From: Abditibacteriaceae bacterium
Lineage (GTDB): Bacteria > Armatimonadota > Abditibacteriia > Abditibacteriales > Abditibacteriaceae
Direction of reading: 5' to 3'
Assembly (NCBI GenBank): GCA_031372065.1
Contig: JANMKN010000287.1
Location: 1 to 14,072 of the forward strand
Length of the DNA stretch: 14,072 bases
Shown: one piece after another, positions 1-12,322 of the stretch
Position numbering within the stretch: the first letter of the stretch is position 1
How the letters are laid out: every line of letters starts with the position of its first letter
Notes under the pieces: generated by a model
What the model was told of the DNA's origin: nothing
Database searches by the model: none
Seen by the model: the letters and a program-made list of their open reading frames with translations, nothing else
Translations under genes and position numbers: made by a program

Positions 1-173
1 AAGAGCGAGTGCGGTTAGAGACACAATACGCTCAACTTGAAAAAGAACTTCGCGAACTCAAAACGCGACTCAACCTCATTGACTGGATTGAACACGAACT
101 GAAAGAACATCCTGATGCTTTGAAAGCCCTACTGGAGCAAATCGCTAAAGCCGACTCCCATCCCAATGCGTAA
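1..173 (+). CDS. 3' end of a hypothetical coiled-coil protein (partial)
   Basis: Frame from nt 3 is open: ERVRLETQYAQLEKELRELKTRLNLIDWIEHELKEHPDALKALLEQIAKADSHPNA, TAA at 171-173; heptad Leu pattern. Not in the ORF track because the start lies outside the window. Confidence 0.7.
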   Translation, partial: ERVRLETQYAQLEKELRELKTRLNLIDWIEHELKEHPDALKALLEQIAKADSHPNA

Positions 174-202
174 CAGGGCGACGGATTATTTGGCGACAAA
201 TA

Positions 203-232
203 ATATCAGGAGCATATCAGGATCATATCCGG
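203..232. repeat. 11-bp tandem repeat, about 2.7 copies
   Basis: ATATCAGGAGC (203-213), ATATCAGGATC (214-224), ATATCCGG (225-232). Confidence 0.85.
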
Positions 233-270
233 CGATTTTCGATGAGGATAGAAAGTGGTTTAAAGAATCT

Positions 271-696
271 ATGGCAGCAAAAGTATCAGCGAAAGCAGCA
301 CAAAAAGTGGAAGTAGAACCTGATTTAAGCCACATTACGGCGCGCTTACAGGCCTTAGCCGTTCCCATGGCTTCGCTGATTCTTGACCCCACCAATGCGC
401 GCAAGCACAGCCCGAAGAATCTGGATGCCATCGAACAGTTTCAAGGTTGGCGTCAGGAGTTGCCGCCGGTGTGGCTCCATCCCGAATGGAGCCAGCGCGA
501 GAATCCTGAACTTTTGCGCGCCATTGTGGAAACCGTAAAAACAACCCCCAATACGCGCGCTGGCTATCAATTACACAAAATGTTTGGCGCAGACTTTCAG
601 GATAAGGGCACGCGCCCCAATGTGCCTTTGGGCGGCGTGTCAAACGGTGTTTCAACGGAGGGGGTGCCACTGCACAGTGGCAGTCATGGCAATTAA
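271..696 (+). pseudogene. Probable chimeric remnant: ParB/Srx-like N-terminus fused in frame to a QueE-like C-terminus
   Basis: Likely start ATG 271 (MAAKVSAK). LAVPMASLILDPTNARKHSPKNLDAI resembles the opening of phage ParB-like domains but stops before the rest of the domain. PVWLHPEWSQRE...RAGYQLHK resembles the QueE C-terminal 'L(Q/H)PEW...Q(L/T)HK' segment. No radical-SAM CxxxCxxC. Stop overlaps the folE start. Family assignment is by eye. Confidence 0.65.
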
Positions 697-1279
697 AGAT
701 TCTCACGGCACGCAAAAACAAGACACGGCGCGGCAAGCAGAAAACGCCGTCCGACAACTTTTAATCCACGTCGGCGAAGACCCGGCACGCGATGGTTTGG
801 TGGATACGCCGGGCCGCGTGGTGCGCGCCTTCGAGGAATTAACCTATGGCTATCGTCTTGAGCCGGCGGCGATTTTGGGACGCGTTTTTGATGAGCGATG
901 TGAGGAGATGGTCATTTTGCGCGATATTTCGTTTCAAAGTTTGTGTGAGCATCACTTGCTGGGTTTTGGCGGCACGGTGGATATCGGTTATCTGCCGAAT
1001 CAAAACGTGGTCGGCCTTTCCAAGTTAGCACGCCTTGTCGAATGCTTCGCGCGGCGCTTGCAGATTCAAGAGCGCCTCACTCAAGAAATTGCTCATGCGC
1101 TCGAAACCCATTTAAAGGCGCGCGGCGTGGCAGTTGTGGTGCGCGCCCATCATTCCTGTATGGGTTGTCGTGGTGTGCGGCAGCCCGGCGCGCAAATGGT
1201 GACGCATTGCTTGCTTGGCGAACTGCGCGATAATACGCTTTTGCGCGGCGAATTTTTAGATTTGATTCGGATCAAATAG
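686..1279 (+). CDS. folE: GTP cyclohydrolase I
   Basis: Motifs GEDPARDGLVDTPGRV, SLCEHH, VGLSKLARLV, RRLQIQERLT, HSCMGCRGV (Zn ligands C, H, C). Start placed at ATG 686 (197 aa), which overlaps the upstream gene, rather than 584. Confidence 0.97.
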   Translation: MAIKDSHGTQKQDTARQAENAVRQLLIHVGEDPARDGLVDTPGRVVRAFEELTYGYRLEPAAILGRVFDERCEEMVILRDISFQSLCEHHLLGFGGTVDIGYLPNQNVVGLSKLARLVECFARRLQIQERLTQEIAHALETHLKARGVAVVVRAHHSCMGCRGVRQPGAQMVTHCLLGELRDNTLLRGEFLDLIRIK

Positions 1280-1418: not shown

Positions 1419-1928
1419 ATGGCACGTAAGGACGCAATGCCGGGAGCGAAAGAGAAAGCAGCGCAACGACGGCGCGCTGCCATCGAATACCGAAAGGCGG
1501 GGCTGACCTACCGTGCGATTGCGGATCGTTTGGGTATCAGCCCCCAACAAGCCTACCGCGACGTGCAAGCTACGCTGAAGCAAATTCATGTTGAATCGCT
1601 TGAAACGGCAGAAGAGATGGTTCAACTGGAACAGGAGCGGTTAGATAACTATTTAGTTGCATTGGCCGGGCGCCTATCCAAAGGAGAATTGCAGGCCATT
1701 GACCGGGCCATAAAAATCAGCGAAAGTCGCCGCAAACTGTTGGGATTGGATGCCCCGATGAAGATTGCGCCCACCAATCCCGAAGGTGATAAGTCTTATG
1801 CCCCGGCTTCTCTTGATGAACGACTTGCAGCCCTTGATGAACGACTTGGCCGCATTGGCGCCTTACTTGACCGAGGGCGAACTCGCCGAGATCGAAACGC
1901 AAATCGCAGCGATTCAGGGGGAGCTTGA
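1419..1928 (+). CDS. terS: Terminase small subunit (HTH-containing)
   Basis: N-terminal HTH (AIEYRKAGLTYRAIADRLGISPQQAYRDV), helical middle, AIDRAIKISESRRKLLGLDAP segment typical of phage TerS; overlaps terL. Start uncertain (GTG 1371, ATG 1419 or ATG 1437). Confidence 0.85.
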   Translation: MARKDAMPGAKEKAAQRRRAAIEYRKAGLTYRAIADRLGISPQQAYRDVQATLKQIHVESLETAEEMVQLEQERLDNYLVALAGRLSKGELQAIDRAIKISESRRKLLGLDAPMKIAPTNPEGDKSYAPASLDERLAALDERLGRIGALLDRGRTRRDRNANRSDSGGA

Positions 1929-3807
1929 AGAAGATGAAATTGAAGTCGAAGCCACTTTGTGCCGGGCCAAACTCAGTGAGTTCTTTCGCCGCAGTTGGCA
2001 CGTTTTGGAGCCGACCACACCTTTAGCCGATAACTGGCACCTTGATGCCATTTGTGACCATGTGCAAGCCGTTTTGGAAGATTGGATGGCACGCCAGCGC
2101 TGGCTAATGAGGCAGGAGAAGAGGAAGAGGGAATTAGACCCGCACGATTTGGGCAATTTGGGCAGTTCATTGGGCAACGCATCAACGACTGCCTTGTTCT
2201 CCCGTTTGTTTAATCAAGCGCCGACGGATAAACGCTTGGATAAACCGGCATCACTGGCACTCAATGATCCTAAGCCTGAACTGCGCATTCAAAATTTGCT
2301 TATCAATGTGCCGCCGGGCACAGCCAAGTCGCGTATTGTGGGCGTGTGCGCTCCGGCGTGGATGTGGCTGCATTGGCCGAGTTGGCGCGCTTTGTTTTTA
2401 TCGGCGAACCCGGATATCGCTTTGCGCGACAGCACCTTTTGCCGGGACTTGATTGAAAGTGATTGGTATCAGAGCCGCTTCAAACCAACATGGAAACTGC
2501 GCAATGATAAAAACGCTGTCAGCGACTACTGGAACACGGCAGGTGGGCAACGCCGCGCCAAAGGTTGGTTCGCTAAGATCACCGGCAGTAGAAATGATTG
2601 TTTGTGTGTGGATGATCCCCATGATGCCGACTCGCGCAATCTCTCCGACCAGAACATGGCGACGGTTAATGAGCGCTGGGACAGCACAATTCGCAACCGC
2701 GTTAGCGATCCGCAAAATTCAGTGCGCATCGGCATCATGCAGCGCCTTCGGCAAAACGACTGGTCGGGTCATGTGCTCTCCTCAGGCATCTGGCATCTGG
2801 TCTGTATTCCCCAAGAGTTTGAACCGCAGCGCCTCAAAGAAAACCCCGATTACAAAAAGGGCGAATATCCCCGTGTTACCAAAATCGGCTGGCGCGATCC
2901 TCGCTCGAAGCTGGGCGAACTGCTTTTTCCCCAGCGCTTTACGCCAGAGTTTTTGGAAGAAGAAAAAGCTGTCGGTTCGTTTTATTATGCGGGGCAACAG
3001 CAACAGCGGCCCGCTCCGGCCCAAGGCGGCATCTGGAAGCGCTATTGGTGGGGCTTCTGGGTGCCTTCTGGCCTTACCCTGCCACCGGTTACGATGCAAC
3101 TGGCCGATGGCACAATTTATGAGCACCAGCAGCGCACTTTGCCTGCCCGCTTTGAATTTCAATTGCAGTCGTGGGATATGGCGTTTGGCAAAAGTGAAAC
3201 CAGTTCGATGGTGGTCGGGCAGATATGGTCGCTCGCTGGCGTTGACCGTTTCCTGCTTGATCAATTGCGCAAACAAATGGATTTCACCGAAACGCAAAAT
3301 GCCTTTCGCCAACTTTCCCAAGATTGGCCGCAAGTCGAAACCAAACTGGTCGAAAACAAAGCCAACGGCCCAGCGATTATTTCCAGTCTCAAAGGCGAAT
3401 TCTCCGGCCTCATTGCAGTTGAACCCGAAGGCGACAAAGTGGCGCGTGTGATGGCCGAGCAGGGCACCTTGGAAAGCGGCCATGTCTGGCTGCCGCATCC
3501 GGGCCTCTTTGATGGGACGGTGTTGCAGCAACTGGAAACGCGGCACCCTCAGCTATTTCAAATTTTGCAGCGCAGCATTCGTCAACGGCTGGAACGGTTG
3601 GACAACAAAGCGCACTCAGGCAAGGTTTCCAATTGGGTCGAAGAATTTGTCGAAGAAGCGGCCGGCTTCCCCAATGGCGCTTTTAAAGATGTGGTGGACA
3701 CTGCTTCGCAAGGCTTGCTAAGGATCCGCAAATTCATCCAGCAGCGTGACCAAAGCAGCGAAATTCAGCCCTCGACATCAGGACGGCAGTTTTTTAATCG
3801 GAGATAG
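1816..3807 (+). CDS. terL: Terminase large subunit
   Basis: Walker A region LLINVPPGTAKS, Walker B CLCVDDPHD, coupling motif IMQRL, RNase H-like nuclease motifs QSWDMAF, LVENKANG, DKVAR, FPNGAFKDVVD. Start probably ATG 1816 or 1837. Confidence 0.96.
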   Translation: MNDLQPLMNDLAALAPYLTEGELAEIETQIAAIQGELEEDEIEVEATLCRAKLSEFFRRSWHVLEPTTPLADNWHLDAICDHVQAVLEDWMARQRWLMRQEKRKRELDPHDLGNLGSSLGNASTTALFSRLFNQAPTDKRLDKPASLALNDPKPELRIQNLLINVPPGTAKSRIVGVCAPAWMWLHWPSWRALFLSANPDIALRDSTFCRDLIESDWYQSRFKPTWKLRNDKNAVSDYWNTAGGQRRAKGWFAKITGSRNDCLCVDDPHDADSRNLSDQNMATVNERWDSTIRNRVSDPQNSVRIGIMQRLRQNDWSGHVLSSGIWHLVCIPQEFEPQRLKENPDYKKGEYPRVTKIGWRDPRSKLGELLFPQRFTPEFLEEEKAVGSFYYAGQQQQRPAPAQGGIWKRYWWGFWVPSGLTLPPVTMQLADGTIYEHQQRTLPARFEFQLQSWDMAFGKSETSSMVVGQIWSLAGVDRFLLDQLRKQMDFTETQNAFRQLSQDWPQVETKLVENKANGPAIISSLKGEFSGLIAVEPEGDKVARVMAEQGTLESGHVWLPHPGLFDGTVLQQLETRHPQLFQILQRSIRQRLERLDNKAHSGKVSNWVEEFVEEAAGFPNGAFKDVVDTASQGLLRIRKFIQQRDQSSEIQPSTSGRQFFNRR

Positions 3808-5784: not shown

Positions 5785-6069
5785 ATGGTCGGAGGAACTG
5801 TTGTTGATGTGAAGCACCTGACTGATAAAACGGTGCTGACCGTTGAAGACCGCACTGCTGAAAGCGGTCATGGTGCGCGTGTGACCGTAAATGCGGAACC
5901 CGGCCACGATTTCAAAATGGAAGATATTGTCTGGTGGCAGGGTGGCAATATTTACTGGACGCGCAAAGGCAGCAAGCACGAGAACATTTTTAGTGATGTT
6001 GCTGTGCCAAAGATTGGCTACAGCTATGGTTACACCCACCGCAGCGAATTGGAATTGGCGGCGCTGTGA
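5785..6069 (+). CDS. Hypothetical beta-rich phage protein
   Basis: AAGGAG RBS, ATG 1 nt after the upstream stop; 94 aa with alternating hydrophobic strands and a DIVWWQGG..YWT segment. Confidence 0.8.
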   Translation: MVGGTVVDVKHLTDKTVLTVEDRTAESGHGARVTVNAEPGHDFKMEDIVWWQGGNIYWTRKGSKHENIFSDVAVPKIGYSYGYTHRSELELAAL

Positions 6070-6320
6070 CGCCCATAGCACGACGTATTTTGATGCTGTT
6101 GTATGGTGATGGCGTGAATTATACATCAGAGCAAATCAAGGCCAGAATACGCGTCATGTTTGCTGCCTTGGAAGGTTTTGACCAGGCGGTTGATGAAGCT
6201 ATCATATGGTTGGAACTGCGCGATTATGTTTGGCTGAACGATGACCACTCCGATGAACCCGTTGTGCAACTGACTACGCAAGGCATCGCAGTAGCAGAAG
6301 CAGTAGGGGCGCGATGGTAG
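6066..6320 (+). CDS. Putative winged-helix protein
   Basis: GTGA start/stop overlap; 84 aa; ARRILMLLY...AIIWLELRDYV...VQLTTQGIAVA fits the wHTH pattern ending in 'LT..G'. Confidence 0.6.
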   Translation: MTPIARRILMLLYGDGVNYTSEQIKARIRVMFAALEGFDQAVDEAIIWLELRDYVWLNDDHSDEPVVQLTTQGIAVAEAVGARW

Positions 6321-6568
6321 CATTTGCTTTGCAGGTTAATGAGTGCCGCATTTTCGGTAGTAACCACGCCGCTCTTGAGTGGGTGAATTATCGGCTTATG
6401 GGGCCAGAGCATCGCTTTGAAGTGGTGAATTCCACTATTGGTGGTGAAGTGGTGAATGTGGTCTGTGACGATGAAGAACATGCGAAGCGGCTTATGTCAC
6501 ACATGATCGAAAAAGGCGTGCCCAAATGCGCCCTGAAAATTGTGCGCAAAAATATAGTGAAGCTATGA
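6314..6568 (+). CDS. Hypothetical protein
   Basis: 84 aa, AGGGG RBS, overlaps both neighbours (ATGGTAG and ATGA). Confidence 0.7.
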   Translation: MVAFALQVNECRIFGSNHAALEWVNYRLMGPEHRFEVVNSTIGGEVVNVVCDDEEHAKRLMSHMIEKGVPKCALKIVRKNIVKL

Positions 6569-6699
6569 AACATCGCATTCCGCTTCTATCCGCTGTTGTA
6601 GCTGCCTTCAATCGCGCACAGGAATCAAAAGCGCGTCGCAAATCATTCCGGGCCAAACGCAGTAAGCGGAAATACCCGACACACAAAAGAGAGAAATAG
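6565..6699 (+). CDS. Small, highly basic hypothetical protein (44 aa; below ORF-track cutoff)
   Basis: ATGA overlap with the upstream stop; MKHRIPLLSAVVAAFNRAQESKARRKSFRAKRSKRKYPTHKREK, TAG 6697-6699; ends 9 nt before the next start. Confidence 0.6.
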   Translation: MKHRIPLLSAVVAAFNRAQESKARRKSFRAKRSKRKYPTHKREK

Positions 6700-6708
6700 A
6701 GAGAAATC

Positions 6709-7263
6709 ATGACCCTGATCGTGGGGGTGGTGAAAAACAATGAGGTCTGGATTGGCGGCGATTCCTACATGGAAATCAACCAAATCTCGCAGACCACAGC
6801 GCGCCCCAAAGTCTTTCGCAAGTTTGAACCCCAGAGCGGGCGCCCCGTTCTTATTGGGCAGTGTGGTGATGCCATGCTTGGACAGATCGCTGAGTTTCAG
6901 TTTGATGTGTTAGAGCGTCCTGAAGGTGGGGATATATTTCGGCACGTGTGTGATGGCATCGCACAACCGCTTTTGAACGCCATTAATGCGCGGGCCGAAT
7001 CGCTCAAATTGAAGGGCAAGGACTGGCCCAGAGGTCGCTTTCTGATTGGTTATGAAGGCCGATTGTTTATCATCGACAGACAGTTCTATGTCTCCGAAAC
7101 AACCGGTGAATTTAACTCAATTGGCGCAGGTGAAGATGCGGCTTTAGGTTGTCTGTTTGCCACCAAGCGACTGGCTCCCACAGCCAGAGCGCAAAAGGCA
7201 TTAGAAGCTGCGGCAAAATACAGCAGCTTGGTCGCGCCTCCCTTCCACATCGAAAAGCTGTGA
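6709..7263 (+). CDS. HslV/proteasome-beta-like Ntn-hydrolase (Thr peptidase family)
   Basis: After Met removal: Thr1, Asp17-Ser18, Lys33 in proteasome-beta spacing (TLIVG...IGGDS...PKVF), then IGQCGD, FLIG, SIGAG...ALG and ALEAA...VAPPF. Confidence 0.88.
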   Translation: MTLIVGVVKNNEVWIGGDSYMEINQISQTTARPKVFRKFEPQSGRPVLIGQCGDAMLGQIAEFQFDVLERPEGGDIFRHVCDGIAQPLLNAINARAESLKLKGKDWPRGRFLIGYEGRLFIIDRQFYVSETTGEFNSIGAGEDAALGCLFATKRLAPTARAQKALEAAAKYSSLVAPPFHIEKL

Positions 7264-7293
7264 AAGTCCCATTTTGAACGTGAAATCGCCTTT

Positions 7294-7397
7294 CAAACTC
7301 GCAATGTTTGCGAATTTGCCGTCCCAGAAAGCCAAGCCAAATTTGGCGAATTCGCCAAATTTGAATCCTTGCCAAATGTTACATTTTGTAACATTTG
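7294..7397. repeat. Three tandem inverted repeats of 25, 26 and 25 bp
   Basis: CAAACTCGCAA-TGT-TTGCGAATTTG (7294-7318, 1 mismatch); CAAATTTGGCGAATTCGCCAAATTTG (7338-7363, perfect palindrome); CAAATGTTACA-TTT-TGTAACATTTG (7373-7397, perfect arms). Confidence 0.95.
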
Positions 7398-8402: not shown

Positions 8403-8705
8403 ATGGGAAAACCAATAGCGGTTTGGCTGGCGACATTCCTGAGCCCCACAGCTTATTTTCTGTTGCTGGTGTTCTGGGACAGATTGCGCGTGCCTGCCCC
8501 GCCAGAGGGCTTTGTCGTCTCCCTGTTTTGTCTCATCCCTATCGTGGCACTACTGGCCTGCGGGACTGTGGTCTGGCGGAAGAATCAGAGAGTGAACCGC
8601 AGAGCGGGTTGGCTGGCTTTGACCGTGCTGGCGATGGCGTTGCAGGTCGGCGTTTTGCTCGTCATCATCATCAGCGCGATTACGGTAGCAATTTCTCTCC
8701 CTTAG
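8403..8705 (+). CDS. Small integral membrane protein (about 3 TM helices), moron-like
   Basis: AAGGGAG RBS; three hydrophobic stretches separated by DRLRVPAPPE and RKNQRVNRR; tandem TAG TAG stop. Confidence 0.8.
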   Translation: MGKPIAVWLATFLSPTAYFLLLVFWDRLRVPAPPEGFVVSLFCLIPIVALLACGTVVWRKNQRVNRRAGWLALTVLAMALQVGVLLVIIISAITVAISLP

Positions 8706-8771: not shown

Positions 8772-8793
8772 GCTTGCTACTATTGTCGCGTTT

Positions 8794-8822
8794 TTGGTGT
8801 TTTTCGCGCTTTGTTTTAGAAT
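8794..8822 (+). promoter_or_regulatory. Putative sigma70-type promoter for the scaffold-capsid genes
   Basis: TTGGTG (8794-8799), 17 nt, TAGAAT (8817-8822), just after the terminator; GAGGA RBS at 8842-8846. Confidence 0.45.
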
Positions 8823-8852
8823 CAACTTTGTATTTTCTTCTGAGGATTCTTT

Positions 8853-9707
8853 ATGCGATTCGGGCGATTGCCGGGCGTTCCTTTGGGCGTGCAGTGGTGT
8901 TTGGAAGCCGATAACGGCGGCGGTGGCTCCGGTTCTGGCGGTGGCGGCAATAACAACAGTGACGACGACAAGGCGCGTCGCAATCTGGAAAATCTGCTGG
9001 CCCAAAAGAACGGCGATGCCATCGCTCTATCGGCCCAACTGCTCGCCGAAAACGCTGGGCTACGCGACGACAAAAGGGGCCTTAATAAACAGATCACCGA
9101 ACTCAAGGCCAAGGTGCCTGCTGAAGATGCGGTAGTTCTGTCTGGTGATGACCTCAAAGCGTATAACGACCTCAAAGCCTTGGGCAATCTCGATGAGTTG
9201 AAGCAACTCAAAACCGAGCGCGACGACTTCAAAACCAAATACGAAACCGAACAGAAAACCAATGCCAGAAACGCGCGTGAGATGCTTTTGCGCGATGTGG
9301 CGGATAATGTGGCACCCGGCGACAAATGGAAGTTTTCGGTTTTACGTGATCGCGATGCCCTTACCCCCGGCCTTTCCTACGAGATCAAGGATGTCGAAGA
9401 AAACGGCCAAAAAGCCAAACGCACCTTCGTCAAATACAAAGACGGCGAAGGCGACAGTGCGCCAGTCAAGGAATTGGCGCTGAGTGATTTCGCTTCGCAA
9501 AAATGGAGCGATTACTTGCCCGCCTTGCAACTGGGAGCCAGTGCAAACGGCGGACAAAATGGTGGGGCACGCCACGTCGCTCAAGGCAGTGGTGGCAGCA
9601 ACGGGAAAGGCAGTATTTTCGATTCGATCCGCAAGGAAGCCGAAGAAAAGAACAAAGCCGCGAAACCGGATGGCCCCAGCGTCGAAGAGCGCATGAATAT
9701 GCGTTAG
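8853..9707 (+). CDS. Capsid scaffolding protein
   Basis: 284 aa; Gly-rich flexible N-terminus, long charged coiled coil, Gly-rich linker and short C-terminal helix; lies upstream of decoration and capsid genes. Confidence 0.8.
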   Translation: MRFGRLPGVPLGVQWCLEADNGGGGSGSGGGGNNNSDDDKARRNLENLLAQKNGDAIALSAQLLAENAGLRDDKRGLNKQITELKAKVPAEDAVVLSGDDLKAYNDLKALGNLDELKQLKTERDDFKTKYETEQKTNARNAREMLLRDVADNVAPGDKWKFSVLRDRDALTPGLSYEIKDVEENGQKAKRTFVKYKDGEGDSAPVKELALSDFASQKWSDYLPALQLGASANGGQNGGARHVAQGSGGSNGKGSIFDSIRKEAEEKNKAAKPDGPSVEERMNMR

Positions 9708-11794: not shown

Positions 11795-12322
11795 ATGGCA
11801 AAACGTGTAATTTTACGCGCCATTCGGCATAGCACCAGGCGATTCTCGCCCGGTCAAGAAAAAGAACTGGCTGCCGCGTCCACGCCCGAACAGTTGAAAG
11901 AGTGGCAAAAGCGCGGTTTGATCGAAGGTGATTGGGGTGTCGAAGTCGAAGAGGAGGGCGTTCAATCGCCTCTTATGGGCTATCCTGCCGATGCGCTCGA
12001 ACCTATCGCCGCGCGCATCGGCGGTTCACTTGGCTTTGAGCGCGAAGAAGGCGAACCGCCCTTGCAGTTTTTAGAGCGCTTCGCCAGTGACTGCGAACGT
12101 ATCACCTCCCGGCTGGGTGAGCATTTCGGCGCACTCGAAAGTGAGCGCGATACCGCGATTCTGGCCCGCGATGAGGCCCTTGCGCATTGGGAACAGGCAG
12201 TGGCTGAAAACGACAAGCTGAAAGCTGATTTGGACGAGTTAAAAGTGTTCGTGGAAGGCACAAAAGCCGACGCTGAAAAGCCAGACGCTAAAGCCGACGC
12301 CAAAAGCAAAGCTAAAAGCTAA
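11795..12322 (+). CDS. Hypothetical protein with coiled coil and K/A/D-rich tail
   Basis: 175 aa, 2 nt after upstream stop; tail KADAEKPDAKADAKSKAKS. Confidence 0.75.
   Translation: MAKRVILRAIRHSTRRFSPGQEKELAAASTPEQLKEWQKRGLIEGDWGVEVEEEGVQSPLMGYPADALEPIAARIGGSLGFEREEGEPPLQFLERFASDCERITSRLGEHFGALESERDTAILARDEALAHWEQAVAENDKLKADLDELKVFVEGTKADAEKPDAKADAKSKAKS

Follow-up and report, generated by a model that had tools for sequence, protein, structure and literature searches.

A ParB-QueE chimeric reading frame upstream of folE in a phage late region, a probable deletion scar of a 7-deazaguanine DNA-modification cassette

According to PMC6884629, FolE, QueD, QueE and QueC make preQ0, and DpdA inserts preQ0 into DNA. 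The corresponding genes of phage CRB2 are laid out in PMC6392294 as ORF1 (ParB-family), ORF2 (DpdA-like) and ORFs 3-5 (queC/D/E), with ORFs 7-8 encoding the terminase subunits. DpdA-independent cases have also been described, and those phages retain QueD and QueE (PMC6884629, PMC10516641). Phages with a lone folE are set aside in PMC6884629 as hard to assign to either folate or preQ0 synthesis. Additionally, PMC12783734 reports ParBc domains adjoining phage modification genes and assigns them no role. The locus analyzed here has the order parB'-'queE-folE-terS-terL, that is, it occupies the place of such a cassette, with a ParB-like first gene before terS and terL, and its first two genes are present only as fragments fused in one reading frame. 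The reading that we prefer, at a probability of roughly 0.77, is that this ORF is the non-functional scar of a neutral deletion, in frame and about 3 kb long, within a 7-deazaguanine DNA-modification cassette. No title or abstract opening in the literature covered, which leaves out most subscription journals, describes such a ParB-QueE chimera.

The window, i.e. the whole 14,072-nt stretch of DNA that was analyzed, makes up the entire contig C191 of the assembled genome G000 (6.14 Mb, 94% complete), and the coordinates of the features given below refer to its + strand. It encodes a phage late region with folE, an HTH protein gene (terS), terL and genes for portal-like, head morphogenesis and major head proteins. 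The predicted terminase small subunit gene, terS (1419..1928), encodes a helix-turn-helix protein (HTH_23) and was assigned by its position directly 5' of terL; its homologues come after ParB-like genes in L017, L022, L024 and L073-L080. The terminase large subunit gene, terL (1765..3807; phrog_38, E 1e-67), forms the right border of the cassette slot. Judging from the binning and the assembly-graph links, the phage is a probable prophage; no attachment site was found for it, and ARAGORN detected no tRNA in six contigs. Additional genes, including one for an HslV-family peptidase (phrog_1040), are located between the portal-like and head morphogenesis genes (5785-7363); behind them, a perfect palindrome of 26 nt occupies 7338-7363. 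A 100-aa hydrophobic ORF at 8403-8705, located in a T-rich stretch whose AT skew is opposite to that of the neighbours, is possibly an inserted membrane-protein gene. Short tandem repeats with units of 11 nt and 12 nt can be observed at 203-224, in the spacer 5' of the chimeric ORF, and at 1380-1407, in the spacer 5' of terS.

The chimeric ORF (271..696) encodes 141 aa, in which a ParB-like N-terminal fragment is joined in frame to a QueE C-terminal fragment, as identified by profiles, BLASTP and a representative-wide search. It is a single open frame with 0 cysteines, it contains both motifs quoted in the original prediction, and its start codon at 271 is backed by the matching start of protein P0049. 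The original prediction had taken the first part, up to about nt 432, for the start of a ParB-like domain, and the second part for a QueE C-terminus devoid of CxxxCxxC, and both assignments were borne out. The first 54 codons (271..432) match the beginning of a phage ParB-like gene: a profile made from 57 ParB-like proteins aligned with aa 23-56 at profile positions 4-37 of 131 with a score of 23.6 bits (best of 200 shuffles, 2.3 bits), and the homology stops at nt 432-435, short of the conserved G-N-G core. Over aa 18-55 the ORF is 87% identical (33/38) to P0049, a ParB-like protein (phrog_620, E 7e-31) that was the one match among 14 candidates when aa 15-60 were searched against longer proteins. 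The remaining codons (433..696) represent the last third of queE with its native tail: a profile of 46 QueE proteins aligned with aa 55-125 at positions 153-224 of 227 with 89.4 bits (best of 200 shuffles, 4.2 bits). A top QueE match, P0050, is 68% identical over aa 66-130, and another QueE protein, P0051, is 62% identical over aa 49-131 including the tail. A search among proteins of similar length gave 47 matches from 83 candidates, namely the ORF itself and 46 QueE-type proteins, with firm alignment only from about aa 62-66. The C-terminal QueE motifs WLHPEWSQ, RAGxQxH and PLGG, which form invariant columns in an alignment of 27 sequences, are kept, and the GGE motif is missing, as is the CxxxCxxC (or Cx14CxxC) Fe-S motif, which P0050 possesses.

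The two halves were also separated by BLASTP (E<1e-3), where aa 1-54 matched 31 of the 57 ParB-like proteins and none of the 46 QueE proteins, and aa 55-141 matched all 46 QueE proteins and none of the 57 ParB-like ones. QueE profile and BLAST alignments may extend weakly across the N-terminal part, with a gain of about 1 bit (90.5 vs 89.4). The possibility that the whole ORF is only a degraded QueE was ruled out, as none of the QueE proteins is matched by aa 1-54 and the long alignments given by BLAST are run-ons of low identity. A complete ParB-like domain (about 125-130 aa, with the G-N-G core) is not present in the ORF, which stops at profile position 37 of 131, nor is an intact QueE, since positions 1-152 of 227 are missing. 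Neither fragment thus retains its core, and, to judge from the missing motifs, neither ParB nor QueE activity would be expected. The separate HMM analysis of the halves, proposed with the original prediction, gave a divided result: our own profiles matched each half, but Pfam, PHROGs and NCBIfam yielded no significant match to the ORF or to either half. As tblastn of the ORF against 50,697 phage records returned nothing as well, the assignment of the halves rests on metagenome homologues. The ESM Atlas provided no usable match and no cluster for the ORF, which indicates neither absence nor novelty.

An unindexed search of 1.84 billion representatives returned 109 matches: the ORF itself, 57 proteins matching only the ParB part, 50 matching only the QueE part, and one, with another breakpoint, matching both. 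No homologue spanning the whole ORF without a break was therefore found among these representatives, and the window protein is a singleton. Moreover, 195 of 198 QueE ORFs from 275 loci begin at a QueE profile position below 20, the three exceptions being the window's ORF (twice) and that of L206, which is cut by its contig end. The protein matching both parts, P0061 (344 aa), has a complete ParB domain joined in frame to a QueE that starts just after the Fe-S motif and thus has no CxxxCxxC; its join also lies where the ParB-like and QueE families resemble each other. P0061 is a singleton from a Logan contig of 4,486 nt whose DNA context was not found.

This second fusion, together with the open frame with native start and stop and the preserved C-terminal QueE motifs of the window's ORF, could suggest a functional fusion protein, in which the ParB-like N-terminus would carry, for instance, a module that binds pterin or CDG or that interferes with QueE. 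We consider this highly improbable, because the ORF retains just one quarter of the ParB domain and one third of QueE, the breakpoint of P0061 differs and each of its halves is only 43-54% identical to the window's ORF, both proteins are singletons, and neither a whole-length homologue nor an Atlas cluster was found. A broader version, in which ParB-QueE chimeras without the Fe-S motif arise repeatedly and are kept as functional proteins, so that temperate phages would collapse the cassette into a fusion that drives folE or binds and blocks the host QueE pathway, appears highly doubtful to us. A further apparent, independent loss of the 7-deazaguanine cassette was noticed at L262:153-1262, where an intact parB is directly followed by a folE without about 70 N-terminal residues, and then by terS and terL. 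P0061 and L262 are each known from a single contig. As the breakpoints differ and there is no conserved family, repeated loss fits these cases better than a functional fusion; P0061 and L262 are still compatible with cassette loss being favoured in temperate phages.

Other fused or interrupted pathway proteins were also observed. P0052, a singleton from a 64-kb contig whose DNA was not found, has about 105 C-terminal QueE residues fused to a complete FolE. P0053, a QueE of the window's subtype, has an intein-like insertion within the region of the Fe-S motif (Pfam matches below the cut-off). In L098:11983-13299, QueC is fused to a C-terminal T-fold domain (phrog_1550 and phrog_5949), and from a sequence motif we take the phrog_5949 domain to be QueF.

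The junction could be placed within a zone at 415..465: the ParB match stops at aa 55, the alignment with P0051 starts at aa 49, and firm QueE identity begins at aa 62-66. An in-frame deletion join at 424-432 had been proposed; the in-frame join was retained, but its site is placeable only between about nt 415 and 465. Residues 49-54 align with both parent families, which at the protein level points to a possible microhomology at the join. Nothing above chance was found when direct and inverted repeats at the junction, sigma-70 promoters and tRNAs were searched. The contigs of all three runs of one study (X1, X2 and X3) bridge the junction, including the region of nt 420-440 where spanning sequence had been asked for, with 0 differences (spans 1-893, 283-611 and 329-529) and with no joint or loose end. 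This evidence consists of contigs, in which rare alleles can be hidden, and the window may itself derive from one of the runs; it therefore speaks for the presence of the junction and not for its fixation. No intact allele was seen in the X1-X3 contigs, a weak negative, since rare variants are lost from contigs and coverage of X1 and X2 was about 85%.

It might be argued that the junction is an assembly mis-join, given that the assembly graph is tangled and has shared blocks, that the three runs come from a single study and one may be the source, and that only contigs are available. The unchanged crossing of the junction in contigs of three separate samples, with no loose end, makes a mis-join unlikely; in addition, no repeat family reaches across the junction among the largest 20 of 28, and no other piece of either parB or queE was found in G000. 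Taken together, these points make a mis-join scarcely credible.

The intact parB...queE-folE block that was expected in related phages was found 5' of their terminase genes, in the order parB-dpdA-(queC)-queD-queE-folE, and is intact in L036, L040 and L081. P0049-like genes were found at 68 loci, and in 8 rows of these (7 distinct loci) queE lies a few kb downstream. A DpdA-like gene (phrog_887) comes after parB in all 7 distinct loci, QueD was confirmed in 5 and QueC in 4 of them, and folE follows in the 6 that reach far enough. From the opposite side, upstream sequence of 4 kb or more is available for 45 of 71 distinct viral folE loci; queE was found in 41 of these 45, queD in 39, dpdA in 34, queC in 26 and parB in 14. 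The distance from parB to folE in these phages is 2.4-6.5 kb (median 3.5 kb, n=18, measured from ORF or hit starts) as compared with 415 nt in the window, and about 3 kb is therefore missing from the latter. P0049 and P0050, the best relatives of the two halves, are each encoded on a Logan contig of 84,276 nt from the same source; equal size is not proof of one contig, and the two probably belong to one intact cassette in a close relative. At the protein level only, they point to a possible collinearity with an intact parent on either side of the join.

DNA of a close parent was not found in viral, metagenome or genome contigs, in 41 relatives, or in 401 genomes of the phylum, where the window's QueE subtype occurs in G009 only. 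The best candidate for a near parent is the locus of P0060 (ENA contig, 11,004 nt), a FolE that is 93% identical to that of the window and has in common with it Gly93, where 18 other sequences have Pro. The host's family also includes an Abditibacterium genome with a prophage whose cassette, containing a QueE of the window's subtype, is intact and lies between the lysis genes and terS, with dpdA after folE. The parent gene order is not certain for this reason, and many other loci with the window's QueE subtype also have dpdA after folE, with parB undetected.

The first 146 nt of the window (1..146; 99.3% identity to C145:6230-6375) are the end of a 6.4-kb replication/lysis-side block common to a sibling phage on contig C145, and the two phages diverge at nt 146. 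One X1 contig of 7,122 nt consists of C145:1-6375 followed by window positions 147-893. The late genes of the sibling phage are only about 30% alike to those of the window, and contig depth is roughly double on the shared block as compared with the branches (14.8 vs 7.3 in X1; 7.2-7.8 vs about 3-6 in X2), which fits two related prophages or two strains. In the G000 assembly graph, C203 leads to C185 or C186, both of which lead to C145:1-6375 and then to C145 or the window, an arrangement that would fit two prophages in one cell or two strains. Short patches at window 8791-8924 and 12167-12245 match C145 at 83-86% identity, where the surrounding late genes are otherwise distant, and suggest past exchange between the two phages. 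In C145 the slot (L089:6410-9081) contains a ParB-like gene, an ABC-ATPase/acetyltransferase gene (phrog_11143) and a formyltransferase gene (phrog_9240) 5' of terS, which we take to be a predicted DNA-modification system. The same slot holds a single ParB-like gene in G023 and nothing in G012. The slot between the lysis genes and terS is, by this comparison of sequences, variable in the family and apparently dispensable.

In a phage as mosaic as this one, which has 6.4 kb upstream in common with a sibling whose late genes are so distant, the chimera might instead have arisen by illegitimate recombination between two phages or modules, one giving the start of parB and the other the end of queE with folE. 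ParB-like genes also head DNA-methylase genes 5' of terS (L016, L017), and the best matches of the two halves are not equally close (87% vs 68-73% identity). We regard this as very unlikely: the best relatives of both halves are on contigs of identical size and source, and parB...queE-folE is common as the order of a single cassette; the functional outcome would be identical. On the preferred reading, a single parent with the order parB...queE-folE would have undergone one deletion, with one end at codon 49-55 of parB and the other at the helix that precedes the queE WLHPEW motif. Lost in this event would be dpdA, queD, the catalytic portion of queE and probably queC. A short DNA match at aa 49-54, suggested by the proteins only, may have set the junction, and since such a match would also give the frame, an in-frame join could arise without selection.

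The last gene of the former cassette, folE (686..1279), encodes an intact GTP cyclohydrolase I (PF01227, 231.8 bits, positions 2-179 of 179; NCBIfam above cut-off). It has 1 deviation in 42 conserved columns, which equals the median of 19 sequences, and this deviation is shared with P0060. The chimeric ORF runs 11 nt into folE, which starts at 686. As the original prediction stated, translational coupling to folE may thus have been preserved by the join; however, among 77 intact loci there are 37 whose queE stop is no more than 100 nt away from the folE core, so the overlap is ancestral, and its survival, being inherited, is no evidence of selection for folE translation. In our interpretation, folE is likely to be a stranded passenger, redundant with the host folE, that may still be translated via the inherited overlap.

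It is important to mention the observations that weigh against a neutral deletion, namely the preserved frame, a folE without decay and the existence of a second in-frame ParB-QueE chimera (P0061). The deletion could have been selected, either because loss of DpdA and QueE helps the lysogen, or because the in-frame join feeds ribosomes to folE for pterin or folate supply. The intact folE has no obvious Shine-Dalgarno sequence just upstream of 686, the scar is present in 3/3 samples, and the cassette has suffered three separate internal losses (window, P0061 and L262), all of which would agree with selection. It must be weighed against this that the folE of L262 has itself lost about 70 N-terminal residues, and a broken folE argues against selection to keep this gene; that the host already has folE, queD, queE and queC; that the tight queE-folE join is ancestral; and that one third of junctions are in frame by chance, with a single haplotype permitting no selection test. 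A selected deletion is accordingly regarded as unlikely, and a neutral one is retained as the preferred reading.

The genome was also searched for the remaining pathway genes. No DpdA was detected in the 94%-complete G000 by tblastn with four DpdA-like queries or with phrog_887, whereas the control, G009, was detected with E 2e-30; as G000 is incomplete and the 3' part of the phage is not linked in the assembly, a distant dpdA might be missed. The folE, queD, queE and queC genes of G000 are found on other contigs and were taken as host genes; its QueD and QueC matches are only on C234 and C20 and were taken as host copies. Neither the window nor the 6.4-kb upstream block revealed a QueD or QueC of a phage cassette, and no other cassette gene was seen among the scanned ORFs of the upstream block either. 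With no DpdA transglycosylase, the phage would no longer insert preQ0-type bases, and its DNA is predicted to be probably unmodified in this respect.

In its central claim, that a multi-kb deletion within the cassette made the chimera, the original prediction is supported by the two halves, by the intact cassettes of the relatives and by the bridged junction. The locus would document how an anti-restriction DNA-modification cassette was lost from a phage in nature. A folE standing alone next to terminase genes is readily classed as a folate auxiliary gene, but, as this locus indicates, it can be what remains of such a cassette. The window's ORF, P0061 and L262 together suggest recurrent loss, and the price that temperate phages pay for 7-deazaguanine modification thereby becomes testable. 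The chimera reveals no new enzyme or mechanism.

Compared with the described systems, the locus is a broken variant and not a member, because DpdA, QueD, QueC and a working QueE were not found. The cassettes of Rosebush and CRB2 (B2 and B9 mycobacteriophages) and of the CAjan type have the same gene set in the same place, but in the window only folE is whole, dpdA, queC and queD are absent, the fragments of parB and queE are fused, and no modification is predicted. The DpdA-independent phages differ from the window phage in retaining QueD and QueE, both of which it lacks. With respect to QueE itself (7-carboxy-7-deazaguanine synthase, a radical SAM enzyme; PF04055, phrog_2076), the C-terminal third of the ORF is 62-73% identical to intact phage-type proteins, but no cysteine, CxxxCxxC or GGE motif is left; P0003 is an intact QueE relative (PDB 6NHL, 4NJG). 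Phage ParB-like proteins (ParBc/ParB_N; phrog_620) head DNA-modification cassettes or are fused to methylases, and the N-terminal 54 aa of the ORF match their start, at profile positions 4-37 of 131 only and without the conserved core. Finally, as in the lone-folE phages, folE is the sole intact pathway gene of the window; in contrast to those phages, its origin from a cassette can be read from the adjoining fused fragments.
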